A stretch of 64,000 nucleotides of DNA from an uncultured Acidobacteriota bacterium. GTDB taxonomy: Bacteria > Acidobacteriota > Thermoanaerobaculia > Gp7-AA8. Both the position numbers and the translations under genes were made by a program. Positions 3,668-54,398 of this stretch are shown here, in pieces (position 1 is the first letter of the stretch; every line of letters begins with the position of its first letter). A model generated the notes under the pieces. That model made no database searches. It saw only the letters and a list, made by a program, of their open reading frames with translations, and was not told the DNA's origin. The stretch is from positions 800,001 through 864,000 of the forward strand of contig CAVUKB010000007.1 in NCBI GenBank assembly GCA_963741955.1, written 5' to 3'.

Positions 3668-3696
3668 CCGAGCCCTCCCGACGAATTTCGCGCCCA

Positions 3697-28404: not shown

Positions 28405-29166
28405 ATGTACAAGCGAGTGTTGAGTATCGTTTTGCCCCTGGTATCCGTCTGTCCAATCGTGATGGCTCAACCGGTGAGTTCTGCCGACGCCATTCTCCCG
28501 GTGGTCGGGTCGACGGCAGGCGCGCACGGAGCGAATTTCAAGACCGGCTTTCAGATGAACAACCGGACGGACGAGGCGATGTCCGGATGGCTCGTCTTTC
28601 ATTCCCAGGGGGTGGCGGCGACGGCAGGTGACGCGAAGCTTCACTACGACCTTCCGCCGCATGCGACGCTCGCGGCGGACGACGTGGTCGCGGAGATGGG
28701 GGCAAGCGGCCTCGGTTCGATGGATCTGGTCGTCGAGCAGGGGGACGTTCCGACCATCGTGGCCCGCGCCTACGACGATCAGGAGAGCGGTACCACCGGA
28801 GTGATGGTTCCTTTGTTCGATCCTGCCCGGGCACTGGCCATGGGCGATTCGCTGTCGCTCATCGTTCCGCGCGATCTCGAGCGGTTCCGATTCAACATCG
28901 GGGTGCGAACACTCGATCAGGGAGCCACGGTGGCCGTGGTCGTGCGTGGAGAGGATGGCATCGTCCGCTCCGAGCTCGGCGAGATGACCTGGCCGGCCGG
29001 GTACTTCATCCAGCAGCCGGCGAATCAGTTCACCGGAGTCGCGCTTCTCCCGAATGAGAGCATCGGCTTTCAGGTCGTCCAGGGGAGCGCAATCATTTAC
29101 GGCACCACCGTCGACAACAGCACCAACGATTCGAGCATCCAGATTCTTCAACGACGGAATCCCTGA
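28405..29166 (+). CDS. Secreted beta-rich hypothetical protein, paralog of the N-terminal domain of the downstream giant protein
   Basis: Sec-like signal; ILPVVGSTAGAHGANFKT ... DVVAEMGASGLGSMD ... DNSTNDSSIQI. Confidence 0.85.
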   Translation: MYKRVLSIVLPLVSVCPIVMAQPVSSADAILPVVGSTAGAHGANFKTGFQMNNRTDEAMSGWLVFHSQGVAATAGDAKLHYDLPPHATLAADDVVAEMGASGLGSMDLVVEQGDVPTIVARAYDDQESGTTGVMVPLFDPARALAMGDSLSLIVPRDLERFRFNIGVRTLDQGATVAVVVRGEDGIVRSELGEMTWPAGYFIQQPANQFTGVALLPNESIGFQVVQGSAIIYGTTVDNSTNDSSIQILQRRNP

Positions 29167-29324
29167 ACTTCCCGGAGGTGACGAGCCGCCGCCGATTCCG
29201 GCTCGCGCACCGAGTCTCGCATGGTGAAGGGGGGCATCCCTTTCACCAGCATGCAGAAATCCGATCGGACGCCCAGCAGGATTCGCACGTCCACATTCAG
29301 AGAAGCGAAAGAAGGGTTCAGGTG

Positions 29325-32300
29325 ATGAGAGCACTCTCGCGCGTACCGCTGCTCAGTCTCGCCATTTTGCTGTCCGCTGTCGCGGTTCTCGCTCAGGCGC
29401 CACCGACCGGTGCGATGCAGGTCATTCCGGTCGTCGGCTCCACCGCCGGCGCGCACGGCGCACAGTTCCGGACCGAGCTCCAGCTCCAGAATCCGACCGG
29501 TGCGACCATCAGCGGAACCATCGTCTATCACCCTGCGGGACAGCCGGGATCTCCGGCGGATCCGCAGCTGCGCTACTCGCTCGATCCATTCGCCGTGAAG
29601 TCGTACGCCGACGTCGTTGCCGAGATGGGGCAGAGTGGACTCGGCTCCATGGACGTCGTGGCGGATTCGGGGATGGCCCTCCCGGACGCGGTGGTGCGCG
29701 CCTACAACACGCGCGAGGATGGCGGAACGACCGGGAGCTCGATCCCGGTGCTGAGCCCCGATGACGCGATGCAGAGCGGCGACCTCGCTTCCCTGATCGT
29801 ACCGGCCGACCTCGGGCGCTACCGGCTGAACGTCGGCATCCGCACCCTCGGAGAGCCGACCTCGATCCGGCTGCGCGTCTACGGTTCCGACGGAACCCAG
29901 CGCGGCGACGCCGTCAGCCTGAGCTATCCCGCGAACTATTTCGAACAGAAACCGGTCGACCAGCTCATTCCTTTCGCCGTCCAGCCGAACGACTCCATCG
30001 TCTTCGAGATCGAATCGGGAAGCGCGTTCGTCTACGGGACGAACACGGACAACCGGACCAACGACCCCAGCGTTCAGATCGATCGTTTCTTCGGGAAACA
30101 ACATGGTGCAAAGGACCAGACCGTCGAGACGGATGAAGACACGCCCGTGGACATCACCCTCGAGGGAGTTGCCCCGGGACGGCGCGTGCTCGACTTCAGC
30201 ATCGTTTCCGGCCCGGCGCACGGAACGCTCTCGTCCCAGACCCGCATCGACGACGAGCACGTGAAGCTGACCTACACTCCGTCGCAGGACTACAACGGAA
30301 CGGACTCGTTCGATTTCCAGGTGTCTGATCCCCTCACCGGAAAGTCCGACCAGGCCACCGTTCACATCATCGTCCATCCGGTGAACGACGCGCCGACCGC
30401 TCAGCCCAACAGTGTGACGGCGGATGAGGACACCCAGGTCACCGTCGATCTGATCGGCGCCGACGTCGATCACGACACGTTGACGTACAGCATTCTGACG
30501 CCGCCCTCGCACGGCACACTGGACGCTGTGACGAAGATCAGCGACCTCCTCGCGCGCGTCGATTACACACCCGACGCGAACTACAATGGATCGGATTCAT
30601 TCGAGTTCCAGGTGAGCGACGGAAGCCTGACGGCGACGGCGACGGTCACGATCGACGTACGCCCGGTCGACGATGCTCCGGTCGCCACCGCCGACTCGTA
30701 CACGTTGCTCGAAGACCAGACGCTCAACGAGGCGGCCCCCGGCGTTCTCGCCAATGACACCGATACCGAAGGCGATCCGCTCACCGCGATCCTGGTGAGC
30801 GGTGCGAGCCACGGAACGGTCACCCTGAACGCCGATGGCTCGTTCACGTACGTCCCCGTCGCGGACTATTTCGGTTCCGATGCCTTCACCTACAAGTCGA
30901 ACGACGGAACGCTCGACTCGGGAGTGGTGTCCGTGAGCCTCACCATCACTCCGGTCAATGATGCACCGAGCTTCGCGAAGGGGGCGGACCAGACCGTGCT
31001 GGAAGACTCCGGCGCGCATTCCGTCTCGAACTGGGCGACGGCGATCAGCGCCGGACCGAACGAGGCCACGCAGACGGTCGTCTTCAACGTCACCGGCAAC
31101 AGTAATCCCGCGCTGTTCAGTACCGCCCCGGCGATTGCGCCGAACGGAACGCTGACGTTCACCTCTGCGCCCGACGCCAACGGTTCGGCAACCATCACCA
31201 TCGCGCTTCAGGACAACGGCGGAACCGCGAACGGCGGCGTGGATACCTCCGCGACGCAGACGTTCACGATCACGGTGACGGCGGTCAATGACGCTCCGGT
31301 CTTCACGAAAGGGGCGGACCAGACGGTGCTCGAGGATGCAGGAGCGCAGACGATCGCCAACTGGGCGAGTGCGATGAGCGCCGGACCATCCGACGAATCG
31401 ACGCAGACCGTGGCCTTCAACGTGACGGCGAACAGCAATGCGGCGCTCTTCAGTGCTCAGCCGGCAATCTCGCCGTCCGGAACACTGACCTACACGCCCG
31501 CTGCGAACGCGTACGGGTCGGCGACGATCACCATCGCGCTTCAGGACGACGGCGGAACGGCCAACGGCGGCGTGGATACTTCCGCGACTCAGACGTTCGT
31601 CATCAATGTCACTCCGGTCAACGACGCCCCGAGCTTCACCGGAGGAGCGAATCAGACCGTCCTGGAGGACGCGGGAGCGCAGAGCATCACGAACTGGGCG
31701 ACGGCGATCAGCGCCGGACCGAACGAGGCCACGCAGATCGTCTCGTTCGTGGTCGACTCGAACAGCAATCCGGCGCTCTTCGCGTCCGGACCGGCGGTGT
31801 CGTCGAACGGGACGTTGACCTGGACACCAGCTCTCAACGCGAACGGCTCCGCCACCATCACCCTCCACGCGATGGACGACGGTGGGACGGCGAACGGCGG
31901 AGTGGATGTCTCGCCGTCGCAGACATTTACGCTCACCGTCACCGCGGTCAATGATGCTCCGTCGTTCACCTCTGGCGGCGACGTCACCGTCGCCGAAGAC
32001 AGCGGCGCGTACTCGTCGGCGTGGGCGAGCGCGATGAGCGCGGGCCCGGCGGACGAAACCGGGCAGACGGTCGCTTTCGCGATCACCGGCAATACGAATC
32101 CCGCACTCTTCTCGTCGGGGCCGGCGATCGACGCCGCCGGAAATCTCACCTTCTCCACCGCGGCGAATGCGAATGGCTCCGCGACGGTCACCGTGACGCT
32201 CTCGGATAACGGAGGGACTGCCAACGGTGGCGTCGATACGTCCGCCCCGGTCTCCTTCACCATCACCCTCACCCCTGTGAACGACGCACCGGTCGCGGTG

Positions 32301-35300
32301 GCGGATGCATATGCGACGAACGAGGACACTCCTCTCAACGTCGCTGCCGCAGGTGTTCTGGCGAACGACACGGACGTCGACGGCGACCCACTGAGTGCGA
32401 TCCAGGTGTCGGGCCCCGCGAACGGCTCGCTGACGTTGAATCCGGACGGATCGTTCACCTACACACCGAACGCGAACTACAATGGATCCGACTCGTTCAC
32501 GTACAAGGCGAACGACGGCTCCGTCGATTCGAACGTCGTCACCGTGTCGATCACCATCAATGCCGTGAACGACCCTCCCGTCGCCGGTGATGATTCGTAC
32601 ACCACGGCCGAGGACACTCCGATGGTCGTCGCCGCGCCTGGCGTTCTCGGGAACGACTCCGACGTGGAGAGTGACCCTTTGACCGCCGTGCTGGTCACCA
32701 GTCCCGCGCACGGATCACTCACGCTCAACCCGGATGGCTCGTTCAGCTACACTCCGGCCCTGAACTACAACGGACCGGACAGCTTCACGTACGAAGCGAA
32801 TGACGGGACGTCCAACTCGAACGTCGCGACGGTCAGCATCACCGTGACTGCGGTGAACGACGCGCCGGTGGCGGTCGATGACTCGTACAGTACCAACGAA
32901 GACACTCCGCTGAACGTCCTGGCTGCTTCGGGGGTCCTGGCGAACGACACCGACGTCGATGGAGATCCGCTGACCGCGATCCTCGTCGCGGGTCCGTCGA
33001 ACGGGGGACTGACACTGAATGCGGACGGATCCTTCAGCTACACGCCGAACGCGAACTACAACGGCTCCGACTCGTTCACCTACAAGGCGAACGACGGCTC
33101 GCTCGACTCGAACGTGGCCACCGTGACCATCACGATCAACGCGGTGAACGATCCCCCGGTGGCGACCGGCGACTCGTACACCACGACCGAGGATACTCCG
33201 CTGAACGTCGTGGCTGCGACGGGCGTTCTTGCGAACGACACCGACCCCGAGAGCGATCCGCTCACTGCGGTCCTGGTGTCCGCACCATCGAACGGTACCC
33301 TGACACTCAATGCGGACGGATCGTTCACTTATACTCCGAGCGCGAACTTCAACGGTTCCGATTCATTCACCTACAAAGCGAACGACGGGACGTCCGACTC
33401 GAATGTCGCCACCGTCGCCATCAATGTGACCGCGGTCAACGACCCTCCGGTCGCGAACGGCGACTCGTTCAGTGTGAACGAGGATACCCCTCTTCCGGTG
33501 GCCGCTCCGGGTGTGTTGGCCAACGATACGGACGTCGAAAACGATCCGCTGGTGGCGGTACTCGTTTCCGGGCCGGCCAACGCGGCGTCGTTCACGTTGA
33601 ATGCCGACGGCTCGTTCAGCTATACGCCGAACCCGAATTTCAACGGAGCCGACTCGTTCACGTACAAGGCAAACGACGGGTCACTCGATTCGAACGTGGC
33701 GACGGTGACGATCACCGTCAATCCGGTCGACGACGCGCCGGTCAACAGCGTCCCCGCCGCACAGACGATGGATCAGGGGACCACGCTCACCTTCTCTACC
33801 GGAGGGGGCAACGCGATCTCGATCTCCGATGTGGATGCGGGAGTGGGAGCCATGGCGGTGACCCTCACCGCTTCCGACGGTACACTCTCGCTCTCCGGTA
33901 CGGCCGGACTGAGTTTCACCACCGGCTCGGGGACGAACGATTCCACGATGACCTTCACCGGGACCGTGGCGAACGTCAACGTCGCGCTGGAAGGGATGAC
34001 TTACACCCCCGGCGCGGCGTTCTTCGGATCGACCTCCGTCACCATCACCACCAGTGACCAGGGGAACACCGGCGCGGGCGGGCCGCTCTCGGACAGCGAC
34101 TCGGTTGCGATCACCGTCAACCAGGTGAATCAGCCACCGGTGAACTCCGTCCCTGCAGCGCAGACGATAGACGAAGACACCTCGCTCACGTTCTCGACCG
34201 CCAACTCGAACCTGATCTCCATCAGTGATCCCGACGCGGGATCGGCGAGCGTCCAGGTGACTCTCGGCGTCACGAACGGGACTCTGACTCTGAGCGGAAC
34301 GACCAACCTGACGTTCACGACCGGCACCGGTACCGCCGATGCAACGATGACGTTCACCGGCACGATCGCCGACATCAACAACGCGCTTGCGGGTCTGGTC
34401 TACTCGCCACCGGCGAACTACAACGGAACCGAGACGTTGACCATCCTCACCGACGATCTCGGGAATACCGGTCCGGGTGGAAACAAGACGGACACCGATT
34501 CGGTGACCATTACGATCAATGCAGTCGACGACGCGCCGGTGCTCACGGCACCGGGCTCCGTCACGATCGACGAAGACAACACGCAGACGTTCTCCGGCAC
34601 CATCTCTGTGGCGGACGTCGACGCAGGATCGAATCCGATCGCCGTGTCGCTCTCGGTCAGTCACGGTAACATCGCACTTGCAAGCCTGGTGGGCCTGAGC
34701 ATCACCAGCGGCGCCGACGGAACGTCGGCCGTGGCGTTTACAGGCACACTCACGGACGTCAATAGTGCGCTCAACGGCCTGGTGTACACGCCTGCTGCGA
34801 ACTACAACGGAAGCGACGCTCTTGCGGCCAGTGTGAATGACCAGGGCTACACCGGCTCGGGCGGACCACTCGCCGACAACAGTTCGGTCGCGATCACGAT
34901 CAATGCAGTGAACGATCCGCCGACCGCAACGGCCGCAGGTCCTTACGGCGCCTACCCGGCGATCCCGATCTCATTTGCCGCGGGAACCCTCGGCGGAACG
35001 GACGTGGACGCGGGAACCACGGTCACCATCGACACGGCGCCTGTGGCCACGACGAACGGCTTCGTCACTCTGAATACCGATGGGAGTTTCACGTTCACAC
35101 CTTCTCACGGGGCCGCTGGTGGAACGGCGTCGTTCCAGTACCGCGTATGTGATGACGGAAGCCCTGCACCCGGACTCTGCAGCAGCGCCGTCACCGTCAC
35201 TTTCAACGTGAGCTCGACCGACGTCTACTTCGTGAAGGCGGCGGGAAGCGGCACGGGGTGCGCGCTCGGGTCCGAATGCACGCTCGCCACGGCGCTCACT

Positions 35301-37691: not shown

Positions 37692-37754
37692 CGGGGCGTC
37701 ACCCAGCTGGAGGAGCTCTTGGAAATACACAGTGGACTGAGGAGGAGGTATTAA

Positions 37755-38264
37755 ATGGCAGAACCTTTCCTGAGCGAGATCAGGCTCTTTACCTTTACAT
37801 TCGCGCCGAAAGGATGGGCGCTTTGCGACGGCCAACTGCTGCCGATCAATCAGAATCAGGCGCTCTTCTCATTGCTCGGCACGACGTATGGCGGGAACGG
37901 ACAGACGAATTTCGCACTGCCCGATCTCCGCGGGCGAGTTCCGATCCACACGGGCAGCGGGTTTACACTCGGTGAGCGTGGCGGGGAACAGGCCCACACT
38001 CTGTCGATCTCCGAGCTTCCGACGCACACGCACGTCGCTTCAGGCGTCAATGCGACGGCCACTTCGGCCTCTCCGGCGGGCGCATTCTTCGCGACCTCGC
38101 CGACCGCCCTCGGCTCGGTGTACGGACCTCCCTCCAATTTGGTCGCGACGAATGCCGCGTCAGTCGCGAACGCAGGAGGGTCTCAGGCTCATCTCAACAT
38201 GCAGCCGTACCTGACGTTGTCGTTCGGGATTGCATTGCAGGGGATCTTCCCGAGCCCGAACTAG
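37755..38264 (+). CDS. Phage tail collar domain protein 1 (microcystin-dependent-protein-like)
   Basis: PFLSEIRLF..FAPKGWALCDGQLLPI.QNQALFSLLGTTYGGNG..NFALPDLRGR, HTH motif and NMQPYL...IALQGIFP. Confidence 0.92.
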   Translation: MAEPFLSEIRLFTFTFAPKGWALCDGQLLPINQNQALFSLLGTTYGGNGQTNFALPDLRGRVPIHTGSGFTLGERGGEQAHTLSISELPTHTHVASGVNATATSASPAGAFFATSPTALGSVYGPPSNLVATNAASVANAGGSQAHLNMQPYLTLSFGIALQGIFPSPN

Positions 38265-38279
38265 GAGAAGGAGCAGAAG

Positions 38280-38780
38280 ATGGCACAACCCTATATTGGA
38301 GAGATCCGGATGTTTGCGGGGAACTTCGCTCCGGCCGGATGGATGTTTTGCTCAGGGCAACTCCTCCCGATCAGCGAATACGATGCCCTTTTCAACCTGA
38401 TCGGAACGACCTACGGAGGCGACGGCCAGAGCACGTTCGCGCTCCCCGACCTGCGCGGGCGGATACCGATCCACCAGGGAAACGGGTTCATCATGGGCGA
38501 GACCGGTGGAGCCGAGGAGGTCACGTTGACGGTGCCCCAGATTTCAGCGCATTCGCACCCGTTCCTTGCGGCGAATGCGACGGCCGCGAGCTCGAATCCG
38601 GCCGCGGCTCTCCTGGCAGAGCCGACGGCGAGCATCTACAACGCCGGAACGAATCCAGTCGGCATGTCGCCGCAGGTCGTGAGCTCGACCGGCGGTTCGC
38701 AGCCACACAACAATTTCCAGCCGTATCTCTGCGTGGATTTCATCATCTCCCTCTTCGGGATCTACCCGAGTCCGACCTAG
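38280..38780 (+). CDS. Phage tail collar domain protein 2
   Basis: PYIGEIRMFAGNFAPAGWMFCSGQLLPI...TFALPDLRGR, HSH motif and HNNFQPYL. Confidence 0.92.
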   Translation: MAQPYIGEIRMFAGNFAPAGWMFCSGQLLPISEYDALFNLIGTTYGGDGQSTFALPDLRGRIPIHQGNGFIMGETGGAEEVTLTVPQISAHSHPFLAANATAASSNPAAALLAEPTASIYNAGTNPVGMSPQVVSSTGGSQPHNNFQPYLCVDFIISLFGIYPSPT

Positions 38781-38836
38781 GACTTCCGTCCCGCTGGCGA
38801 TGACGAGAATGCGCACTGTGCATGAGGAGGTGAATG

Positions 38837-39364
38837 ATGGCTGATCCATTCGTTGCAGAGATCAGGATATTTCCGTTCAACTTCGCCCCGAAGGGATGGG
38901 CGTGGTGTAGCGGGCAGCTCTTGCCCATTTCACAAAACACGGCGTTGTTCTCTCTTCTGGGAACGACGTATGGCGGCGACGGAAAATCCACCTTCGCGTT
39001 GCCGGATCTTCAGGGACGGGCGCCCATGCATCCGGGACAAGGTCCCGGCCTGTCGCTGCACGATCTCGGAGAAGAGGGGGGATCGCAGACGGTCTCTCTT
39101 CTCGAATCGGAGATTCCATCGCACTCGCACACGATGCAGGGATCGAGCGACACGGCCGACCAGAATCTCCCTTCCGGAAATATGGCGGCCATACCCCTCG
39201 GCCGCGGCAACAACCTGTACACGGCGACGAACACGCCCCGCGTGGCGATGAACGACAATGCGATTTCGCCCGCCGGTGGGAACCAGCCGCACAACAACAT
39301 GCAGCCGTTTCTGACGTTGTACTTCTGCATCGCGCTGCAGGGTGTCTTTCCGCCGCGGAGCTGA
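38837..39364 (+). CDS. Phage tail collar domain protein 3
   Basis: PFVAEIRIFPFNFAPKGWAWCSGQLLPI...FALPDLQGR, HSH motif and HNNMQPFL; RBS GAGGAGG. Confidence 0.92.
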   Translation: MADPFVAEIRIFPFNFAPKGWAWCSGQLLPISQNTALFSLLGTTYGGDGKSTFALPDLQGRAPMHPGQGPGLSLHDLGEEGGSQTVSLLESEIPSHSHTMQGSSDTADQNLPSGNMAAIPLGRGNNLYTATNTPRVAMNDNAISPAGGNQPHNNMQPFLTLYFCIALQGVFPPRS

Positions 39365-39367
39365 TCG

Positions 39368-40075
39368 ATGGATTCGACGGACTACTTTCATTCGGAGGCC
39401 CCGGCCGGGAGGTCGGGGCCGTGGTTGATCGAAAAGATCACCATTCCGGATCGCGAATACGACGCAGCTGCCGACCCGCGGCCGGACTGCTTCAAGTTCC
39501 GCCCGGGGCGGTACACCGTTCTTCGTCGCGAATCCGAACAGTTCATGACCGATCTCTATGATGAGTGGTGGACGCAACGGCCGGGAATCGCCGAGGCGGT
39601 CGCACGAGGGGGGGACGTCCTGGTCACCGGACTGGGGCTGGGCCTGGTCGCCGAAGCGATGTTGCGCCCGAGTGAAAGTCGCGTGAAGAGCATCACGATC
39701 GTGGAGCTCTCACCGGACGTCATCCGTCTCGTCGGACCTTATCTGCTCTCGCGCCATCCCGGCCGGATCGACCTGGTCGAGGCGAGCGCCTTTGCGTGGG
39801 AGCCGCCTGATCGCGCACATTTCTCCGTCGCCTGGCACGACATCTGGCCGAATCCGTACGCGCCGGAAGTGACCGCGGAGATGCGGCGTCTCCAGGAGCG
39901 ATACGGTGATTGGTGCGACTGGCAGGGATTCTGGCCCCGAACCTATTTCGAAGCCGCGGTCAGTAAGCGCCGTCCGTTCGAGACCGTTGCGTCAGGCCTC
40001 GAGCCGGTACAAGCTTCACAGAAGCATGCAGCGGAATCTGACGTTCCACGACAGCATTTCGACCGAAGGAGTTGA
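39368..40075 (+). CDS. Spermidine-synthase-like class I SAM-dependent methyltransferase
   Basis: VLVTGLGLG, ITIVELSPDVI and WHDIW; starts 3 nt after the third collar gene. Confidence 0.75.
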   Translation: MDSTDYFHSEAPAGRSGPWLIEKITIPDREYDAAADPRPDCFKFRPGRYTVLRRESEQFMTDLYDEWWTQRPGIAEAVARGGDVLVTGLGLGLVAEAMLRPSESRVKSITIVELSPDVIRLVGPYLLSRHPGRIDLVEASAFAWEPPDRAHFSVAWHDIWPNPYAPEVTAEMRRLQERYGDWCDWQGFWPRTYFEAAVSKRRPFETVASGLEPVQASQKHAAESDVPRQHFDRRS

Positions 40076-40113
40076 TCCGGCCCGCCACTGACGCGCCGGA
40101 GGAAGAGCACATC

Positions 40114-40827
40114 ATGTTCGAGATCGATCGCAGACGCTTCGTCATCCTCGGGACCGCCGCCACGGCGGGTCTCGCTCTCCGCTCCAATCTGTTCGCAGAG
40201 AGCTGGCAGAATCCATCGTTCGTTTCAGTCGGATACTGCAGCACCGTCCGACGGGTCCGTACCCGGCGGGCGCCGGGTCCGCGCTTCTTCGAATCCGCCA
40301 CCGGAGTTCCCGGTGGTGATCCGGCATTCTTCCGAGACGGAGCTCGTTTCCGCATCCACGACTTCTGCCGTGCATCCGCGCCCGCTACACCGGAGCGGAT
40401 CGACGTCGACGTTCTTTTCCCGGCCGAAGGTCTCGAGCAGAAAGTCTCGTTTCTCGCGTGGCAGAGTCGCTCGAATGGCGGATCGGAGGGGACAGCGAAT
40501 CCTCTCGCATTCCGGATTCCGGTTCAGTCGACTGGTACGACGGATGTGGTGATGCGCCGCCGGATCGGCGAGATCGACGAGAATGTGACCATACCGTTCA
40601 GCGTCAACGACGGAGCCGCCGCCATCAAACTGAACCACGGTATCTACGCGATTGCACTCCTTCGCGAAGGCGACTCCGCGCCGCGGTGGGGCTCCGTGCA
40701 GGCCGAAGGGGTGAACCCTGCGGAGGACCGGATGTCGATCCGTCTGGTGCGCGATTCTCTCGACGGGCCGGTCCCCGTCACTTTCGACTATCTCCTTCTT
40801 TCCGTATCCTATCCGGAGAATGACTGA
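40114..40827 (+). CDS. Tat-signal hypothetical protein
   Basis: MFEIDRRRFVILGTAATAGLAL twin-arginine signal followed by a beta-rich body. Confidence 0.7.
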   Translation: MFEIDRRRFVILGTAATAGLALRSNLFAESWQNPSFVSVGYCSTVRRVRTRRAPGPRFFESATGVPGGDPAFFRDGARFRIHDFCRASAPATPERIDVDVLFPAEGLEQKVSFLAWQSRSNGGSEGTANPLAFRIPVQSTGTTDVVMRRRIGEIDENVTIPFSVNDGAAAIKLNHGIYAIALLREGDSAPRWGSVQAEGVNPAEDRMSIRLVRDSLDGPVPVTFDYLLLSVSYPEND

Positions 40828-42772
40828 CCGTTTTCCCGCAGACGGATCGCTGAGCCGATCCCTTTCCCCGAGAGTGCGGGCGCTCTTCGGAACGCTCGCG
40901 ATCCTTCTCGCGCTTGCAGCACCTGACGTGGCGGCATCTGCGGATACGGCCTGGATTCCATGGAGCGACGCCGCGATCGCGCACTCCGCGAAGAGCGGAA
41001 CCCGGCCGCTTCTGATTCTCATCGGTGACGGGAGCTGCATCGAATGCTCGCAGCTTCGAGGGATCGAGGTCGGTGAGGGAGAGCTCGGCCGGCTCTGGCT
41101 CGATGCGGACCTTCATCCCGAGCTCGCACGTGCGTATCTGGTCGCGGCGCGAGTTCTCGGGGCGTCCGGCCCCTCCGCGGTCGTCGTCGTGACTCCGGAC
41201 CTCGAACCGGTCGCGGCGACTTCGGACCTCCAGACTCTTCCGGAGTTTGTCTCCTCATTCTTCTCCCGCTGGAAAGCCGGCCCCACGACGGTCTCGGACC
41301 AGGCGGCACTCGCGATCCGACGCTATCGTCTGAACGGCGGAGCCCTTCCGTTTGAGGATCCGATGACCGCGCGCGGAGTGGCCGTCGAGGCGGAGGCCGC
41401 ACTCTGGGGCGAGGGACGCGAGAACGCCCTGACCGAGCTCCGGAGGCTCACCGCTTCCGCGGTGTACGACCAGCTGGGGGGAGGGTTCCACCGTGCCGCC
41501 AGAGATTCCGAGTGGCGCGTCCCGCGATTCGAGAAACGCCTCGCCGATCAGACCCTCCTGATCGAAACGTATCTCGACGCATCACGCATCACCGACGATC
41601 CGCTCTTCTCTCGCGTCGCCCGCGACTCCGCGGCATTCCTCGTGCGGGAAATGTCCGACGTACGGCGACCGCTCTTCTTCAACGCGCTCGGTCCGAAGAG
41701 CCTCGTCCCCCGCGGAGGACCGGAGATGCTCACCGGCGCGTATTACAGCTGGCAGATCTCGGAGATCACGGCGCTTCTGGGTGACGACGCCCGCCCGTTC
41801 ATCGCGTACTACGGAATGGCTCCCGAAGGGAATGTCCCTGCCGCGTACGACCCGGCCGGAGCGCTCGCGGGACGGAACGTTCTCTTCGTGAGCGGAGCGA
41901 CTTCCGAACCTCCGGCGCTCGACGAATCGAAACAGCACCTCCTCGCGGTCCGGATGCATCGGCCGCCTCCGACCGCAGACGGGAAGGCCGTGACCGAATA
42001 CGAGGCCGCGGCGATCTCCGCACTCGCGAGAAGCTCCATCGCGTTCGACAACGACGACTGGGGCCGTGTCGCGGTCGACGCGCTCCACGCCCTGGACGGA
42101 GTGAATCGCGATTCGAAGAGTCACGCCCTCTACCGCGAGCGCGCGGCGGGCGTCCCTGCGCTCCTCGCCGATTACGTCTATCTGGTTCAGGCGAATCTCG
42201 ACGTGTATGCCTTGACGTTCGATCCCTCGTTTCTGCATCGCGCGGTCGAGCTTCAGAAGGAGTGCGATGCTCTTTTTCTGGACCAGAGCTCGAAGGGCTA
42301 CGCCGCCGCGAAAGCGCTCCCGCCGCCGGTTTCCGGCCTCACCTCTCCCGATCCGATCATGCTCGGCGTCCTTGCGCGGGATCTCGGGAGAATCGGTGCA
42401 ATGACTGCGGATGCCGCGATGGTCGGCCGGGCCACCTCGATCTCCGCAGGAACGACTCTGCCTGCGCAACTGATCGTCGCCGGAGATCGCGGCGACGCGG
42501 CGGTGCGTGCGCTTCTCGAGGCGGCCCGGTCGGACATCCGAGGCAATCTCGAGATTCGCCTATTCGACCGGAAATCGGCCCGTGCGCTCGCAGCTCTGTT
42601 TCCATACGCCGGATTCGTCGCGGAATGTCCCGTCGCGTTCCGGATCGAGAAGTCGAACGGACGCCACGAGTGCAGCCCCTTCGCAACCTTGTGCGACATG
42701 GGGAAGTGCCGCACGCCGACGGCGGATCCCGCCATGATCGCCGCGTGGGTGTCGAAAGGAACATCGAAGTGA
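40820..42772 (+). CDS. Exported YyaL/SSP411-like (DUF255 thioredoxin plus alpha-helical barrel) protein, divergent
   Basis: Signal-like N-terminus; WIPWSDAA, CIEC, YDQLGGGFHR, WRVPRFEKRLADQ, GAYYSW, LADY and C-terminal LCDMGKCRTP. Confidence 0.8.
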   Translation: MTDRFPADGSLSRSLSPRVRALFGTLAILLALAAPDVAASADTAWIPWSDAAIAHSAKSGTRPLLILIGDGSCIECSQLRGIEVGEGELGRLWLDADLHPELARAYLVAARVLGASGPSAVVVVTPDLEPVAATSDLQTLPEFVSSFFSRWKAGPTTVSDQAALAIRRYRLNGGALPFEDPMTARGVAVEAEAALWGEGRENALTELRRLTASAVYDQLGGGFHRAARDSEWRVPRFEKRLADQTLLIETYLDASRITDDPLFSRVARDSAAFLVREMSDVRRPLFFNALGPKSLVPRGGPEMLTGAYYSWQISEITALLGDDARPFIAYYGMAPEGNVPAAYDPAGALAGRNVLFVSGATSEPPALDESKQHLLAVRMHRPPPTADGKAVTEYEAAAISALARSSIAFDNDDWGRVAVDALHALDGVNRDSKSHALYRERAAGVPALLADYVYLVQANLDVYALTFDPSFLHRAVELQKECDALFLDQSSKGYAAAKALPPPVSGLTSPDPIMLGVLARDLGRIGAMTADAAMVGRATSISAGTTLPAQLIVAGDRGDAAVRALLEAARSDIRGNLEIRLFDRKSARALAALFPYAGFVAECPVAFRIEKSNGRHECSPFATLCDMGKCRTPTADPAMIAAWVSKGTSK

Positions 42773-43263
42773 GTGTCGGAAACCGCGATGCCGCTCACAC
42801 ACGACTCGGACCGGTGTCGAACGACGACACTCCGTTTCTCTTCGCGCTGTACGCTTCGACTCGCGAAGAGGAGCTGTCGGTCGTGCCGTGGACTCCGGAG
42901 CAGAAGAACGCGTTTCTCCGGATGCAGTTTCAGGCGCAGCAGACGTCATACGACGGGAACTACCCCGGAGCGAGTCGCGATCTCATACTGCTCGGCGAGG
43001 AGCCCATCGGCCGCCTCTACGTTCAGCGAACTCCCGACGAGATCCGGGTCATCGACATCGCGCTCCTACCGGCATGGCGCGGACGGGGGATAGGATCGAG
43101 ATACCTCCGGGATCTCTGCCGCGAGTCGGACGCGACGGGGATCCCTCTCGCCATTCACGTCGAGAAACAGAACCGAGCGTTGCAGCTTTACCAGCGCCTG
43201 GGGTTCGCGATCGCCGACGACCGAGGGGTCTACTGGTTCATGAAGCGGATGCCGGCCTCGTGA
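42769..43263 (+). CDS. GNAT family N-acetyltransferase
   Basis: GTGA overlap with the upstream stop; FLFALYASTREEEL, QFQAQ, IDIALLPAWRGRGIG and NRALQLYQRLGF. Confidence 0.9.
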   Translation: MSVGNRDAAHTRLGPVSNDDTPFLFALYASTREEELSVVPWTPEQKNAFLRMQFQAQQTSYDGNYPGASRDLILLGEEPIGRLYVQRTPDEIRVIDIALLPAWRGRGIGSRYLRDLCRESDATGIPLAIHVEKQNRALQLYQRLGFAIADDRGVYWFMKRMPAS

Positions 43264-43342
43264 AACGCGGGCGCAGACTCCTGGGAAGGAGAGCGACGCG
43301 GAGGTGCTTTGTCCCGGCCGCATGATCGCCCGCTCAGGGCGA

Positions 43343-43642
43343 TCAGTTGAAAACCGCTTCGTAGCGGCTTCCGTCGGGCTCGGGCTGGACCGGAACGATG
43401 AACAGAGGCAGCTCTCCGAGCTTGTCGTGGCGCAATGAGTACGTTCCCTGGGCGAGTATCCGCTCGCGCTCGCCGCGGAAGATCAGGGAGAAGGGTGAGC
43501 GGGTCGATTCGCTCCTTCGAAATTGCGGCTGTTCGATCACCTCGACGAGCGTCAATTCGTAACGGTCCGATGGAACTTCGATGACGAAGTTCGAGCCGAC
43601 GTGCTCTCTGAAGTCGCTGGCCGTCGCCTGATCGAGATCCAC
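43343..43642 (-). CDS. DUF6916-like small protein
   Basis: F..HVGSNF...LTLVEV...RSPFSLIFRG....LAQGTY.L.H..LG...LFIVP......YEAVFN; RBS GAGGAGG. Confidence 0.8.
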   Translation of the reverse strand: MDLDQATASDFREHVGSNFVIEVPSDRYELTLVEVIEQPQFRRSESTRSPFSLIFRGERERILAQGTYSLRHDKLGELPLFIVPVQPEPDGSRYEAVFN

Positions 43643-44265: not shown

Positions 44266-44362
44266 CACACCCTCCCATTCAGATTGTCCGAACGCTGGAG
44301 TCGACGGAAAGTGTAGCAGAGTCGGTAGGATCACTTCAAAGAGGAAGAAATGCGGGCTAGAA

Positions 44363-44582
44363 CCAATGGCCCGAACTTAAGCAAAACCCGCGTGTCAGCC
44401 GGGAGTCTGCGCGAGCTTGCTGAGCAGCGAAGGATCCTCTCTCCGAGGGGCGCCACGGCTCCCGCCGCGGCCGCGCAGATCGCCTTCAGAACGGAACGAG
44501 ACGAAACCTGCGGCAGATGCGCAGTAACTCCGCACATCGGCTCTGTGAACACCCACCGTGCCACTGAAGTTCGGGCCATTGG
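44363..44582. mobile_element. MITE-like element with terminal inverted repeats
   Basis: CCAATGGCCCGAACTT (44363-44378) and its exact reverse complement AAGTTCGGGCCATTGG (44567-44582); intergenic; no transposase. Confidence 0.6.
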
Positions 44583-44661
44583 GACCAGAACCCGTCTCGC
44601 GCGGCTGCTTCGATCGAACACTTCCCGCAGCCTGCACCTCGGATCACATATCATCGCCGGA

Positions 44662-45261
44662 ATGAAACGATACGACCGCGCCTACTTCGACCGCTGGTAC
44701 CGCGATCCGGAAACGAGCGTCATCGACGACGATGCGGTCCGCCGGCGTGCCACGATGGTGCTGGCCGTCGCTGAACATCTCCTCCGCCGCCCGGTGCGCT
44801 CCCTTCTCGACATCGGATGCGGGGAGGGAAACTGGGAACCGCATCTGCGCCGGATCCAGCCGGGAATCCGCTATCTGGGGATCGACTCGAGCCGTTACGC
44901 GATCCGGCGCTTCGGTCGCGAGCGGAACCTGAGACTCGGCTCCTTCGCCGATGCATCGACCCGGATCGGAGCTGCGCGGTTCGACGTCCTCGTCTGCTCG
45001 GACGTCCTTCACTATCTGACCGCCCGCGAGATCGATCGCGGTCTCCCTCCTCTGGTGGATCGAGTCGACGGAATCGCTTATCTGTCGGCCTACACCTCCG
45101 ACGACGACACCAGTGGTGATCTCGAAGGCGGCTATCGACGTCCTGCATCCTGGTACCGGGATCGATTCCGGAGGGTCGGTCTCACCGAGCTCGGTTTGCA
45201 GTGCTGGGCCGGTCCTCTGATGCAGGAGAGCGGAGCCGCGCTCGAATACTCCCCGGAGTGA
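44662..45261 (+). CDS. Class I SAM-dependent methyltransferase
   Basis: YDRAYFDRWY, LLDIGCGEG and FDVLVCSDVLHY. Confidence 0.88.
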   Translation: MKRYDRAYFDRWYRDPETSVIDDDAVRRRATMVLAVAEHLLRRPVRSLLDIGCGEGNWEPHLRRIQPGIRYLGIDSSRYAIRRFGRERNLRLGSFADASTRIGAARFDVLVCSDVLHYLTAREIDRGLPPLVDRVDGIAYLSAYTSDDDTSGDLEGGYRRPASWYRDRFRRVGLTELGLQCWAGPLMQESGAALEYSPE

Positions 45262-51722: not shown

Positions 51723-52946
51723 TCAGCTCCGATAGTCGGCGTTGAGCGAAACGTAATCGTGTCCGAGATCGCTCACCATCAGCACCGCGGTGGCTGAACC
51801 GCCCCCGAGGTCCACCGTCACCGGCACACGCTCCCTGGAAAACAGCTTTGCAGCGTCGGCCTCCCGGTACTCTGCAGGCTCGCCGTTCTCGACTAGGGTC
51901 AGGTCTCCGATTCGGAGTGAGACCCGTTTGGCCGAAAAGCGGGCTCCACTTCGTCCGACAGCCGCGAGAATCCGTCCCCAGTTAGGGTCGCCGCCGTTCA
52001 GCGCGGTCTTCACCAGAGGCGATGTCCCGATTGCGTGCGCGGCGAGCTTCGCATCCCGTTCGTTCCGGGCGCCGCGGATCTCGATCTCCATCACCCGCGT
52101 CGCTCCCTCGCCGTCCCGTACGATCATCCAGGCCAGCTCGCGACAGACCTTCTCCAGCGCAGCCAGAAAGCTCGCTGGATCCGCTCCGCCTCCGAGTGTC
52201 TCACCGGCGAGTTTCCCCGACGCCATCAGGAGAACCGTGTCGTTCGTCGATGTGTCGCCATCCACGGAGATCGCGTTGAAGCTGGTTGCGGCGGCTTGAC
52301 GGAGTGCCTTCCTGAGAAACTCCGGGGTGGCTGCGGCATCCGTCATGAGGAACGCGAGCATCGTGGCCATGTTCGGGTGGATCATCCCCGCGCCCTTCGC
52401 CATCCCGACGATCCGTCCACGTTTCCCGCCGAGCGTGAAGGTGGCTCGAGCGACCTTGGGGCCGACGTCCGTGGTGAGAATCGCGTGCGATGCGGCCTCG
52501 ATCCCCGACGAGGAGAGCCGGTGCAGAGCATCGGGAAGCGCGGCGCGAATCTTCGCGTCGGGCAGAAGGACACCGATCACGCCGGTCGAAGCGACGAAGA
52601 TCTCTTCCGGAGTGCAGCCGGCCAGTTCCGCTGCCTTGCTCTGTACTCGCTTCGCCGCATTCATCCCTTCCTTTCCGGTGACGGCGTTCGCGCAACCGGC
52701 GTTCACGACCACTCCCTTCACTCGCCCGCGCGACTTTTTGAGGGCAGTCTTCGAGAGCACCACCGGGGCGGCCTGAAAGCGATTGGTGGTGAAGATCGCC
52801 GCAGCGTTCGCGCCGTCCTCAGCGAGGATCAATGCGACGTCGGGTCGCTTCTTCCGGATCCCGGCACGAACGCCGGAAGCGAGAAATCCCTTTGGTAACT
52901 TCATGACGAGAGTCCCCGGTATCGTTCGAACTGTTTCGAGGCGCAT
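51723..52946 (-). CDS. argJ: Ornithine acetyltransferase / N-acetylglutamate synthase
   Basis: KGAGMIHPNMATML, VDGDTSTND, RDGEGAT and DPNWGRI. Confidence 0.96.
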   Translation of the reverse strand: MRLETVRTIPGTLVMKLPKGFLASGVRAGIRKKRPDVALILAEDGANAAAIFTTNRFQAAPVVLSKTALKKSRGRVKGVVVNAGCANAVTGKEGMNAAKRVQSKAAELAGCTPEEIFVASTGVIGVLLPDAKIRAALPDALHRLSSSGIEAASHAILTTDVGPKVARATFTLGGKRGRIVGMAKGAGMIHPNMATMLAFLMTDAAATPEFLRKALRQAAATSFNAISVDGDTSTNDTVLLMASGKLAGETLGGGADPASFLAALEKVCRELAWMIVRDGEGATRVMEIEIRGARNERDAKLAAHAIGTSPLVKTALNGGDPNWGRILAAVGRSGARFSAKRVSLRIGDLTLVENGEPAEYREADAAKLFSRERVPVTVDLGGGSATAVLMVSDLGHDYVSLNADYRS

Positions 52947-52959
52947 ATGCGTGCGAAGG

Positions 52960-54330: not shown

Positions 54331-54398
54331 CCGTGGCCTCTCTCCATCATTCTGCGGCGCGGAACGGTCTCCATCGGCCGTCCCGCATCCGAGATCGT

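Follow-up and report, generated by a model that had tools for sequence, protein, structure and literature searches.

A widespread, horizontally mobile bacterial cassette couples three tail-collar paralogues to a giant exported protein and may encode a surface recognition device

Organization of the locus

The locus lies within a 64,000-nucleotide stretch of DNA, referred to here as the window. All ten genes that a preliminary description had assigned to positions 28405-43642 were found at those coordinates, co-oriented but for the last (Table 1). A whole-genome search returned exactly three collar domains and one DUF6916 domain, every one of them at this locus.

Table 1 Features of the locus, with positions in the window
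Feature	Position	Strand	Remarks
Small secreted protein	28405-29166	+	253 aa; signal-like N-terminus
Giant exported protein	29325-37691	+	2788 aa; Sec-type signal peptide
β-helix-like module (our reading), C-terminus of the giant protein (aa 1960-2788)	35202-37688	+	matches in the giants of other cassettes
Collar paralogue 1	37755-38264	+	169 aa; PF07484 at 9.8e-30
Collar paralogue 2	38280-38780	+	166 aa; PF07484 at 2.8e-30
Collar paralogue 3	38834-39364	+	176 aa; PF07484 at 6.5e-28
Methyltransferase-like protein	39368-40075	+	235 aa; starts 3 nt past collar 3
Tat-signal protein	40114-40827	+	237 aa; motif DRRRFVILG
YyaL/DUF255-like protein	40820-42772	+	650 aa; 8-nt overlap with the Tat gene
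GNAT acetyltransferase	42769-43263	+	164 aa; GTGA overlap; PF00583 at 5e-10
DUF6916 protein (convergent)	43343-43642	-	99 aa; PF21880 at 1.9e-29

The collar paralogues

The three collar proteins are 54-56% identical to one another in pairwise comparisons, and each of their genes is preceded by a GGAGG-type ribosome-binding site. None of the three has a signal peptide. The proteins begin directly with the collar domain (at residue 8 in collar 1) and have no shaft or N-terminal baseplate-attachment part, so that each corresponds to a phage fibre tip alone, comprising collar and head. Their top PHROG match is the tail protein family phrog_9116. An HxH motif, located at residues 91-93 in both collar 1 and collar 2 and 97-99 in collar 3, aligns with the HxH of the solved long tail fibre 8kec_A and is followed by a hypervariable insert (residues 94-138, 98-136 and 102-143, respectively). 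Collar 3 has a double ATG, the second of which starts the conserved N-terminus MADP, and a match to Gp10_C that is below the cut-off (7e-5).

Cellular collar orthologues are 66-77% identical between phyla (67-75% in the collar 1 alignment), and the HxH is invariant throughout all three orthologue sets. Conservation is 86-99% for residues 1-93 and the last ~30 residues, and 31-55% in the insert after the HxH. For a receptor-binding protein, a scaffold identity of 66-77% is unusually high, and the constraint may come from a conserved protein partner instead. Collar 1 orthologues start with MAE in 75 of 83 cases, those of collar 2 with MAQ in 72 of 75, and those of collar 3 with MAD (52) or MD (13) among 74; 200 of 235 collar ORFs have Met-Ala ahead of the conserved proline. 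The collar tree resolves three separate clades, one per paralogue, with phyla mixed inside each and the phage sequences as outgroup.

Distribution of the cassette

The locus represents one copy of a non-viral cassette that is horizontally mobile and widespread, occurring in many bacterial phyla, with a core comprising the giant protein, the three collar paralogues, the GNAT and DUF6916. Judged by record titles, cassette loci span eight phyla, plus Deinococcus megaplasmids, and the collar order 1-2-3 is kept in 71 of the 72 related loci that have a complete trio. The preliminary description had stated a recurrence of the collar trio, GNAT and DUF6916 beside large proteins and had proposed a neighbourhood survey. 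This recurrence was upheld by the 46 loci with long flanks, in which a GNAT lies within 4 kb of the trio in 44, DUF6916 within 4 kb in 41 and a same-strand ORF of at least 1000 aa within 3 kb in 43; all three occur together in 38/46. In the remaining 3/46 loci the giant ORF is on the other strand (as in L002 and L018) or is split into pieces. The giant is upstream of the trio in 25 loci and downstream in 18, and because its position and strand vary between loci, the operon linkage of trio and giant is loose.

Recurrence was also evident at the genome level. In an evenly sampled set of 401 genomes of the phylum, with trio genomes defined by at least three collar matches, DUF6916 was carried by 36 of 39 trio genomes versus 3 of 362 others. 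Most genomes have exactly three collar matches; one genome (G424) has a single collar adjoining DUF6916. Unbiased clustering of the remaining neighbour ORFs yielded no extra recurrent family beyond other giants and the Tat family.

The GNAT is a dedicated core member of the cassette. Its top NCBIfam match, rimI, is below the cut-off (1.3e-9), and its PDB matches, all weak, include the N-terminal acetyltransferases 6wqb/6wqc and RimI (2cnm). DUF6916 is modelled as a small β-barrel (AF2, pLDDT 93), and fold comparison with this model gave no significant match.

The giant protein and the small secreted protein

The giant protein is composed of a Sec signal, a lineage-specific N-terminal domain (residues 26-255), a repeat region (residues ~260-1960) with 10-11 Big_9/Cadherin_4/Cadherin_5 matches and 16 tandem-95 repeats, and the C-terminal module, which we read from its sequence as β-helix-like. 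No Pfam, NCBIfam or PDB sequence match was found for this module. In phmmer searches with the giants of other loci, the matches fall mostly on residues ~1850-2590 of this giant, with E-values down to 3e-40, and include giants that lack a repeat match (for example, Mesorhizobium L009, L011, L052 and L054). The earlier portrayal of the giant as an Ig-repeat protein holds for the copy in the window, where the repeats are present; across phyla, however, it is the C-terminal module that is conserved, and conservation does not extend to the Ig/cadherin stalk or the N-terminal domain. Homology of this module in giants across phyla would be hard to explain without a functional tie to the trio.

The small secreted protein consists of a single free-standing domain of ~230 aa that recurs as the N-terminus of the giant, with 46% identity between the two. 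The protein has no Pfam or NCBIfam match; the domain has 11 copies in the same genome, 3-19 copies in 36 of 41 related genomes, and no match in 80 cassette loci from other lineages. The protein had been counted as part of the run, but it is not cassette-specific and belongs to a domain family that is expanded throughout the lineage.

Accessory genes

The Tat protein is the regular member of this lineage between collar 3 and the GNAT. Homologues were found in 8 of 11 related genomes fetched, in five of them directly between these two genes (L089, L090, L092, L096 and L097), and also at L038 and L048. In its AF2 model (pLDDT 71.6) the signal region is disordered and the mature part is a predicted β-sandwich, with no detectable homology to DUF6916. 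TatC is encoded in the same genome. Across the survey, an ORF with a strict Tat-signal motif is present within the small-gene block in 20/46 loci, none of them from Bacteroidota; the motif occurs in 20 of 587 ORFs inside such blocks versus 13 of 1853 outside.

The methyltransferase-like protein gave nothing in a Pfam search, and matches phrog_15480 'methyltransferase' (4e-21), NF002956 (0.008) and spermidine-synthase-like Atlas clusters (score 0.96-0.98, TM 0.73), 62-93% of whose members are viral. Homologues outside the window occur at two loci, L001 (1 of 80 survey loci) and L099 (genome G039, among the 11 related genomes fetched), and only in these two does the gene sit directly past collar 3. 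The YyaL-like protein consists of a signal-like N-terminus, a thioredoxin-like part with CIEC and a region (residues 200-490) that matches PDB entry 7tkv_A, 'Thioredox_DsbH domain-containing protein' (5.7e-32). This match and the CxxC motif are shared with the YyaL/DUF255 (Thioredox_DsbH) family. The window copy differs from ordinary members in its signal-like N-terminus, in its location inside a cassette and in the lack of a Pfam match, including to the thioredoxin-like domain model of the family; phrog_18279 is matched at 1e-24 and Thioredoxin_7 at only 0.16. The YyaL-like gene has no match in the 80 survey loci; of the 11 related genomes, three have it in linkage with the cassette, adjoining the Tat gene in G018 (L088) and sharing the cassette contig in G012 and G014; paralogues are present in 40 of 41 related genomes. 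Both proteins had been proposed as maturation factors, and with these distributions they are occasional accessories and not core maturation factors.

Relationship to phage fibres and to known systems

The collar domain and HxH head are shared with phage fibre tips, including T4 gp12 (1ocy/1pdi), 8kec and minor tail proteins of Microbacterium and Arthrobacter phages. The phage versions are single genes among tail genes, and their collar domain usually terminates a longer protein that includes the shaft (577 aa in Clayda5, 443 aa in CastorTray), whereas the window encodes three shaft-less paralogues of 166-176 aa. None of the 355 phage homologue records reaches 60% identity (42% at best), and most are single copy, with the domain located inside tail gene clusters.

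The preliminary description maintained that this is no remnant of a prophage or tailocin, and the absence of any phage structural family from the 20 flanking ORFs supports it; nor does the trio group with recent phage fibres, which lie outside its clades. The accompanying statement that sheath, tube and baseplate genes are missing is correct for the same 20 ORFs, but such a cluster exists ~145 kb away on the same contig, outside the window. A decayed prophage, tailocin or defence island with an incidental neighbourhood is already disfavoured and we consider it very improbable. In its favour, both the collar domain and the methyltransferase-like family are otherwise characteristic of phages, and the YyaL-like protein matches a PHROG family too; against this, the flanks are free of phage structural families, the genes are intact and strongly conserved between phyla, phage homologues are at most 42% identical, DUF6916 is coupled to the trio at the genome level, and PADLOC gave no match except a marginal one to a methyltransferase domain.

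By its published description, virophage DSLV2 of the Aquatic Virophage 1 lineage likewise has three consecutive PF07484 genes; the products purify together as a heterotrimer (1:1:1), which takes the form of a 16-nm fibre and binds Synechococcus lipopolysaccharide (PMC12724248). The reported mass of ~58 kDa for the DSLV2 complex implies subunits about as large as the window collars (PMC12724248). However, the DSLV2 genes are located beside capsid genes and their products are part of the virion (PMC12724248), whereas the window trio is chromosomal and cellular, has no virion genes nearby and, unlike that of DSLV2, is linked with a GNAT, DUF6916 and a giant exported protein. A cellular, non-phage tail-collar domain is also described for RhiB of Rhizobium leguminosarum (COG4675, 'microcystin-dependent protein'), which has a presumed role in interactions with other organisms and no established function in these accounts (PMC13133039, PMC6969944). 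The rhi cluster is flanked by the quorum-sensing genes rhiI and rhiR, RhiA and RhiC are without a Pfam domain, and the operon descriptions in these sources mention no GNAT, DUF6916 or giant protein (PMC13133039, PMC6969944).

Proposed function and alternative explanations

From its sequence, the cassette probably encodes a recognition head for the cell surface, best read as a putative heterotrimeric, metal-clamped binding head with hypervariable loops. One copy of each paralogue would assemble (1:1:1) into a single trimeric fibre head, within which six histidines, one HxH per chain, would clamp a metal, and the three hypervariable loops of ~40 residues would make up the tip that binds the ligand, probably a glycan. 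The head would fold in the cytoplasm and, in this lineage, may be exported by riding on the Tat-signal β-sandwich protein of the cassette. In Tat hitch-hiker export, a signal-less subunit is carried by a Tat-signal partner, as in HybO/HybC of Escherichia coli hydrogenase-2. The window similarly encodes a putative metal-binding oligomer without a signal near a small Tat-signal protein, a candidate for binding it; unlike in those systems, many cassettes are without any Tat-signal gene. As the strict motif detected a Tat partner in only 20/46 loci and in no Bacteroidota locus, piggy-backing cannot be the general export route. Two published observations, both tied to the cassette by annotation and set out below, would accord with export and joint expression of the head: a PF07484 protein in the exoproteome of Ruegeria pomeroyi (PMC4949626) and gene co-induction in Acaryochloris (PMC11633204). 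Once at the surface, the head and the giant protein would act together in recognition or adhesion. The GNAT would modify some cassette protein, and we guess that its target is the N-terminal alanine that would be exposed on all three collars by removal of the initiator methionine. The phage-type methyltransferase-like protein and the exported thioredoxin-like YyaL-type protein would be lineage-specific accessories. Taken jointly, the reading of a mobile non-viral cassette in which a 1:1:1 collar head and a giant form a putative surface recognition or adhesion device has, in our judgement, about an even chance of being correct.

The head could instead be a soluble, secreted or released lectin-like protein that acts alone, as suggested for RhiB and the Ruegeria pomeroyi exoprotein, with the giant a surface or matrix protein that is co-located and co-regulated and never docks. 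Such a free lectin would suit the variable position and strand of the giant, the genome with a lone collar beside DUF6916, RhiB of the quorum-regulated rhiABCD operon, for which the available descriptions give no giant neighbour (PMC13133039, PMC6969944), and the reported presence of one PF07484 protein, likened to the cassette by annotation and not by sequence, in the exoproteome of Ruegeria pomeroyi (PMC4949626). Nevertheless, a giant ORF accompanies the trio within 3 kb in 43/46 loci, with the other three having it split or on the opposite strand, and its C-terminal module is homologous across phyla, and we regard the giant-independent lectin as rather unlikely. Somewhat less probable still are three distinct homotrimers serving as alternative tips. 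The solved phage collar fibres are homotrimers, among them the T4 gp12 entries 1ocy and 1pdi matched by the collars, and in the reported DSLV2 simulations one homotrimer of the three likewise showed fair stability (PMC12724248). A single mixed trimer is favoured by the strict one-each content and fixed order in 71/72 loci, by the three ancient clades, with invariant residues particular to each, by the exactly three matches in most genomes and by the experimental 1:1:1 precedent reported for DSLV2 (PMC12724248).

The collar trimer might also act in trans, as the targeting fibre of an extracellular contractile injection system whose genes lie elsewhere in the genome. The cluster ~145 kb away contains sheath, gp19-type tube, VgrG-like spike, gp25 and baseplate J genes, and in the phylum sample a gp19-type tube (PF06841) is present in 20 of 39 genomes with the trio versus 41 of 362 without it; in other phyla, 17 of 46 trio genomes have one. 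Trio genomes are large, and genome size and lifestyle confound this enrichment; about half or more of the trio genomes have no such tube, and trio and injection genes are never adjacent among the matches listed. Moreover, the collars have no N-terminal shaft or baseplate-attachment part, and the conserved neighbour of the cassette is the giant protein. A role as an injection-system fibre appears quite improbable to us, although the tube enrichment hints at another possible partner. In Acaryochloris, whose genes are related to the cassette by annotation and not by sequence, a run of three adjacent 'phage tail collar' genes is reported to be co-induced in low far-red light with an acetyltransferase gene and hypothetical genes close by (AM1_3684, 3686-3690), and the list of top induced genes that contains this run also includes 'tail sheath' and 'baseplate assembly' genes (PMC11633204).

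Gene content of the cassette

The cassette at positions 28405-43642 of the window is real, ancient, mobile and non-viral. It comprises ten genes, nine on the forward strand and one convergent, and every gene named in the preliminary description is found in this run. The three collar proteins match the phage tail-fibre-tip domain PF07484 with scores of 97-105 bits (Pfam cut-off of 24) and share pairwise identities of 54-56%. A GGAGG-type ribosome-binding site lies upstream of every collar gene. The giant gene ends 63 nt upstream of collar 1, and the intergenic gaps within the trio are 15 and 53 nt. Collar 3 and the GNAT gene are 3.4 kb apart, a wide spacing that results from the insertion of three genes, and the DUF6916 gene follows directly after the GNAT gene. 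The genome (5.44 Mb, 99% complete) contains exactly three collar domains and one DUF6916 domain, all at this locus.

Features of the cassette, its surroundings and the injection-type cluster of the same genome (window positions unless stated otherwise)
Feature	Position	Strand	Description
Small secreted protein	28405-29166	+	253 aa
Giant		+	2788 aa; Sec-type signal; 10-11 Big_9/Cadherin_4/Cadherin_5 repeats; 16 tandem-95 repeats
Collars 1, 2, 3		+	169, 166, 176 aa; PF07484, E 1e-28 to 3e-30
Methyltransferase-like gene	39368-40075	+	235 aa; starts 3 nt past collar 3
Tat protein		+	237 aa; twin-arginine motif
YyaL-like protein		+	650 aa; 8-nt overlap with Tat gene
GNAT		+	164 aa; start inside GTGA overlap; PF00583, 5e-10
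DUF6916		- (convergent)	99 aa; PF21880, 1.9e-29
ORF of 198 aa	43738-44334	-	no family; adjoins DUF6916 on the same strand
Class I methyltransferase	44350-45261	+	PF13489, 7e-11; after the 198-aa ORF
Multihaem outer-membrane cytochrome	18914-21058		MtrC/MtrF-like; PF22113, 4e-54
Protein of 701 aa	21969-24074		weak outer-membrane beta-barrel match; after the cytochrome
argJ, argG, argB, argC	51723-58618	-	single run; ordinary arginine-synthesis genes
Contractile-injection-type cluster (L103)	contig C7 of the window genome (G000), 982500-995000		outside the window; the only one in the genome

Three earlier labels hold on evidence other than Pfam, the YyaL-like one over the C-terminal part of the protein. 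The methyltransferase-like protein matches phrog_15480 ('methyltransferase', 4e-21), and the Tat protein combines its motif with a disordered N-terminus in the model. The YyaL-like protein has no PF03190 match listed in Pfam; it carries a CIEC motif, its C-terminal part matches PDB entry 7tkv_A, a Thioredox_DsbH-domain protein (5.7e-32), and its N-terminal thioredoxin-like part matches only Thioredoxin_7 (E 0.16).

The cytochrome and the 701-aa protein may together form an extracellular electron-transfer conduit.

Neighbourhoods across phyla

The survey, with one genome per species, returned at least 600 pattern matches, 566 of which were confirmed to encode a relative. The best 80 of these at least 566 loci were kept, a sample biased towards close relatives of collar 1. 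By their record labels they belong to Pseudomonadota, Bacteroidota, Acidobacteriota, Gemmatimonadota, Verrucomicrobiota, Chloroflexota and Actinomycetota, with one 'Eubacteriales' genome. All ORFs of the 80 loci were translated and searched with the ten window proteins, which yielded 243 collar ORFs and 85 DUF6916, 77 GNAT, 60 giant-like, two Tat and one methyltransferase-like match; the YyaL-like and small secreted proteins had no match in these loci.

The trio is complete in 72 of the 80 loci and keeps the order 1-2-3 in 71 of these, including one locus with three trios (L007) and one with two (L022); the sole exception has the order 2-1-3 (L057). In the other eight, a contig end truncates the locus or collar 2 is broken (L026 and L042). 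Among the 46 well-flanked loci, defined by a complete trio with no less than 5 kb of sequence on either side, a GNAT gene lies within 4 kb of the trio in 44 and a DUF6916 gene within 4 kb in 41; 43 have a same-strand ORF of at least 1000 aa no more than 3 kb away, upstream in 25 and downstream in 18. The full set of GNAT, DUF6916 and long ORF occurs in 38 of the 46. The misses include loci with the giant on the opposite strand (L002, L018) or in three pieces (L053), with DUF6916 placed after a second giant (L006, L069) or with the flank occupied by a second giant (L048, L076); no DUF6916 was seen in L036. The recurrence of trio, GNAT, DUF6916 and large proteins, which the preliminary description had stated, reappears in the survey.

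Clustering of all remaining ORFs yielded two recurrent groups, other giants (27 loci) and a family of Tat proteins (6 loci), and no further recurrent family such as a secretion ATPase, a regulator or a phage gene.

The three tandem trios of L007 (Gemmatimonadales) and the two of L022 (Chiayiivirga) are each preceded by their own giant ORF. L026 and L042 have intact collars 1 and 3 next to a collar 2 that is short or divided between two ORFs, perhaps through decay or misassembly.

Coupling of DUF6916 to the trio

Coupling at the genome level was assessed across 401 genomes sampled evenly from the phylum of the window. A collar match is present in 60 of these genomes, three or more in 39 (a cassette frequency of about one genome in ten) and DUF6916 in 39. 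Trio and DUF6916 occur together in 36 genomes. The trio occurs without DUF6916 in three (G061, G228 and G390), and DUF6916 without the trio in three; G050 and G078 have the DUF6916 match at a contig end, and in G424 a single collar is directly adjacent to DUF6916. Another 13 genomes have one or two strong collar matches and lack DUF6916. Because 36 genomes share both and these 13 partial-collar genomes lack DUF6916, DUF6916 tracks the trio and not collar domains in general; no p-value is given, since related genomes are not independent. Within the family of the window, 14 of 24 genomes, a count that takes in the unpublished genome G022, have collar matches, mostly exactly three.

The DUF6916 model is a small beta-barrel (pLDDT of 93). 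A fold search with it reached E 0.001 in neither the PDB (best 0.08) nor BFVD (best 0.009, TM 0.47); the weak hits labelled as phage neck, terminator or Hcp proteins lie above E 0.001 and were not taken as evidence. Complex predictions of collars 1, 2 and 3 with DUF6916 scored 0.46, 0.45 and 0.41 and those with unrelated partners 0.00 and 0.00; as an unrelated protein in the place of chain 3 still gave 0.52, these scores support nothing either way.

Age and anatomy of the collar paralogs

A tree of 125 collar sequences (quick search, LG+G4, no bootstraps), with three phage rows as outgroup, separates paralogs 1, 2 and 3 into three clades with SH-aLRT values of 97, 100 and 99 (cores of 40, 40 and 39 rows). 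The window trio falls into these clades in the same order. Phyla are mixed inside each clade, and window collar 3 is nearest to a sequence from Saprospiraceae. The N-termini are paralog-specific: MAE in 75 of 83 collar 1 sequences, MAQ in 72 of 75 collar 2 sequences, and MAD (52/74) or MD (13/74) in collar 3. The mixed-phylum clades and the paralog-specific N-termini therefore place the triplication before the spread, with the set moving as a unit.

The collar domain begins at residues 7-9, and the proteins have neither a signal nor a shaft. An HxH motif is invariant in the alignment containing the window collars (A1) and in all three ortholog alignments (A4-A6), and aligns with the HQH of a solved fibre (PDB entry 8kec_A). 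In T4-type fibres, the three-fold axis carries a metal coordinated by six such histidines, and the HxH of the collars is a putative metal-binding motif of the head. Conservation reaches 86-99% over residues 1-93 and the last ~30 residues, and falls to 31-55% in a ~40-residue insert that follows the HxH (residues 94-138, 98-136 and 102-143 in collars 1, 2 and 3). Judged from these alignments, this profile fits a constant scaffold bearing a variable tip for binding.

The giant protein

Giants of other cassettes match the window giant at residues ~1850-2590, the C-terminal, beta-helix-like module, with E-values down to 3e-40; the matches include giants without any repeat match. A PDB sequence search with the C-terminus found nothing.

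A domain of ~230 aa is present in the window at 28405-29166 and 29400-30089, and on contigs C4, C5, C6 and C10 of the same genome. The genome encodes 11 copies, and 36 of 41 related genomes encode 3-19 each; the domain is often N-terminal in frames of 1000-4000 aa. Neither Pfam nor NCBIfam matches it, and it seems to serve exported proteins across the lineage as an N-terminal module.

Tat partners and accessory genes

In many cassettes DUF6916 has a second, longer paralog that bears an evident twin-arginine signal; in others the place between collar 3 and GNAT is taken by an unrelated protein of 170-285 aa with a Tat signal. A strict Tat motif, which misses some cases visible by eye (for example, L063), finds such an ORF inside the small-gene block in 20 of 46 loci, that is, in 20 of 587 ORFs inside the block versus 13 of 1853 outside. 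DUF6916 paralogs account for seven of the 20, and by the strict motif no Bacteroidota locus has an in-block Tat-signal ORF.

The window Tat protein has RRRF followed by a hydrophobic stretch, the candidate cargo collars lack a signal, and TatC is encoded in the genome. As judged from the genes, the locus shares with a Tat hitch-hiker pair the signal-bearing partner, the signal-less candidate cargo and the Tat machinery, and export in the lineage of the window probably proceeds via this partner. Cassette regions were compared in 11 related genomes: homologues of the Tat protein are present in eight, directly between collar 3 and GNAT in five (L089, L090, L092, L096 and L097). The Tat and YyaL-like genes are adjacent in G018, as in the window, and the YyaL-like gene lies on the cassette contig in G012 and G014. 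The fold search with the Tat model gave no meaningful match, and an Atlas search was uninformative (best score of 0.75). The idea that the Tat protein is a diverged DUF6916 paralog was dropped, as profile-profile comparison aligned only the signal peptides (probability of 8.7%) and BLASTP found nothing.

The methyltransferase-like gene directly follows collar 3 in only two other loci, L001 and L099, so that with the window it is found in cassettes of three unrelated lineages, each time right behind collar 3. The nearest relatives of its product are small phage proteins, in spermidine-synthase-like Atlas clusters with 62-93% viral recorded members. PDB sequence searches found nothing for the methyltransferase-like protein, DUF6916 or the Tat family.

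Non-viral character of the locus

The 20 flanking ORFs searched are ordinary cellular genes, among them glutamine synthetase, molybdopterin dehydrogenase, the MtrC-like cytochrome, an AraC regulator, acetyl-CoA hydrolase, MntP, a histidine kinase and arginine-synthesis genes. No phage structural family was found among them, nor any recurrent phage family in the 80 surveyed loci. PADLOC gave no defence-system match except a marginal methyltransferase-domain hit at 0.0011. Collar 1 has phage homologues in 355 records, all below 60% identity, and these hold 391 matching places, so the domain is mostly single copy. In three phages that were examined, it is part of a 'minor tail protein' amid tail genes; in one the protein has 577 aa and ends with the domain, and in another it has 443 aa and the domain is internal. 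Identity reaches at best 42% with phage homologues versus 66-75% with cellular relatives in many phyla, and the trio accordingly does not group with recent phage fibres. The earlier assertion that the locus is not a phage element is therefore upheld, and a prophage or tailocin remnant is rejected, given these identities and the absence of phage families from the 20 flanking ORFs.

A separate possibility is that the collars form a fibre serving a contractile injection system encoded elsewhere in the genome. The genome does contain one such cluster (sheath, gp19-type tube, VgrG-like spike, gp25 and baseplate J), ~145 kb away on the same contig. Within the phylum sample, the tube family PF06841 is present in 20 of the 39 genomes with a trio, 18 of them above the cut-off, and in 41 of the 362 others, the 41 including the unpublished genomes G030 and G183. 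We regard this enrichment as real, although genome size is an obvious confounder. PF06841 is also found in 17 of 46 trio genomes of other phyla. However, the tube is missing from half or more of the trio genomes, and the trio and tube gene sets are never adjacent among the matches listed. We consider a fibre of this kind unlikely. The cassette locus itself differs from an injection system or tailocin in that the flanking ORFs searched include no sheath, tube or baseplate gene. In the distant cluster, where baseplate J has 856 aa, the injection-type genes are followed by an unknown protein of 284 aa and one of 341 aa that has two PASTA domains; a DUF7933/DUF11 repeat protein of 1702 aa adjoins the cluster.

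Proposed mechanism and related systems

The cassette most likely encodes a binding head, a mixed trimer clamped by a metal, that acts at the cell surface together with the giant; both the assembly and the docking are inferred. The three collars would form one mixed trimer, with folding and metal loading in the cytoplasm, and the trimer, the presumed target of the dedicated GNAT, would be acetylated at its N-termini. It would be exported folded, carried in some lineages by a Tat-signal partner, and would dock on the beta-helix end of the giant adhesin, with the hypervariable loops determining what the cell recognizes. The whole reading, a three-chain phage head domesticated by many phyla as an organelle of their own surface, with cytoplasmic folding, GNAT acetylation, folded export, docking on the giant and recognition set by the loops, is tentative and rather unlikely to hold in every part. 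If true, it would add a new class to the recognition devices of bacteria, one exchangeable by horizontal transfer, and would show how a viral receptor-binding head is put to use in the surface recognition of cells; DUF6916 and the dedicated GNAT family would gain a function.

A report on virophage DSLV2 (PMC12724248) describes three consecutive PF07484 proteins that co-purify via a tag on one of them, form a tripartite complex of ~55 kDa natively with 16-nm fibres, and bind Synechococcus cells or LPS. The window trio likewise consists of three consecutive PF07484 genes for small proteins (166-176 aa); the capsid genes expected of a virus particle of the DSLV2 type are absent from the 20 flanking ORFs. 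For a putative 1:1:1 heterotrimer of the window trio the evidence is indirect, namely one copy of each paralog in constant order at 71 of 72 loci and the three ancient clades. RhiB of rhiABCD also bears a collar domain, according to two reports (PMC13133039, PMC6969944). The window differs from a rhiABCD-type cluster in that the LuxI/LuxR family is absent from the 20 flanking ORFs searched, the flank regulators being instead an AraC-type protein and a PAS/GAF histidine kinase with a response regulator. A PilV-collar shufflon fusion (PMC9881135) was dropped as a parallel because its architecture is different.

The literature searched contained nothing on DUF6916 by name or on the phage tail collar domain together with GNAT; as far as searched, no description naming 'phage tail collar' covers the cassette, and no function for it is in print. 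One PF07484 protein is reported in the exoproteome of Ruegeria pomeroyi (PMC4949626). By record labels, cultured carriers of the cassette are Ruegeria sp. TM1040, Aminobacter (A. aminovorans), Mesorhizobium sp. WSM4083, Chiayiivirga flava DSM 24163 and Flavobacterium maritimum. Acaryochloris marina is a further cultured carrier, its genes being matched to the cassette by annotation only: an expression study (PMC11633204) places AM1_3684, AM1_3686 (acetyltransferase), AM1_3687 and AM1_3688-3690 (three 'phage tail collar' genes) within the top 35 genes induced by low far-red light (log2 changes between -3.2 and -4.0) and lists orthologs of AM1_3686-3689 in the corresponding set of a second Acaryochloris strain.
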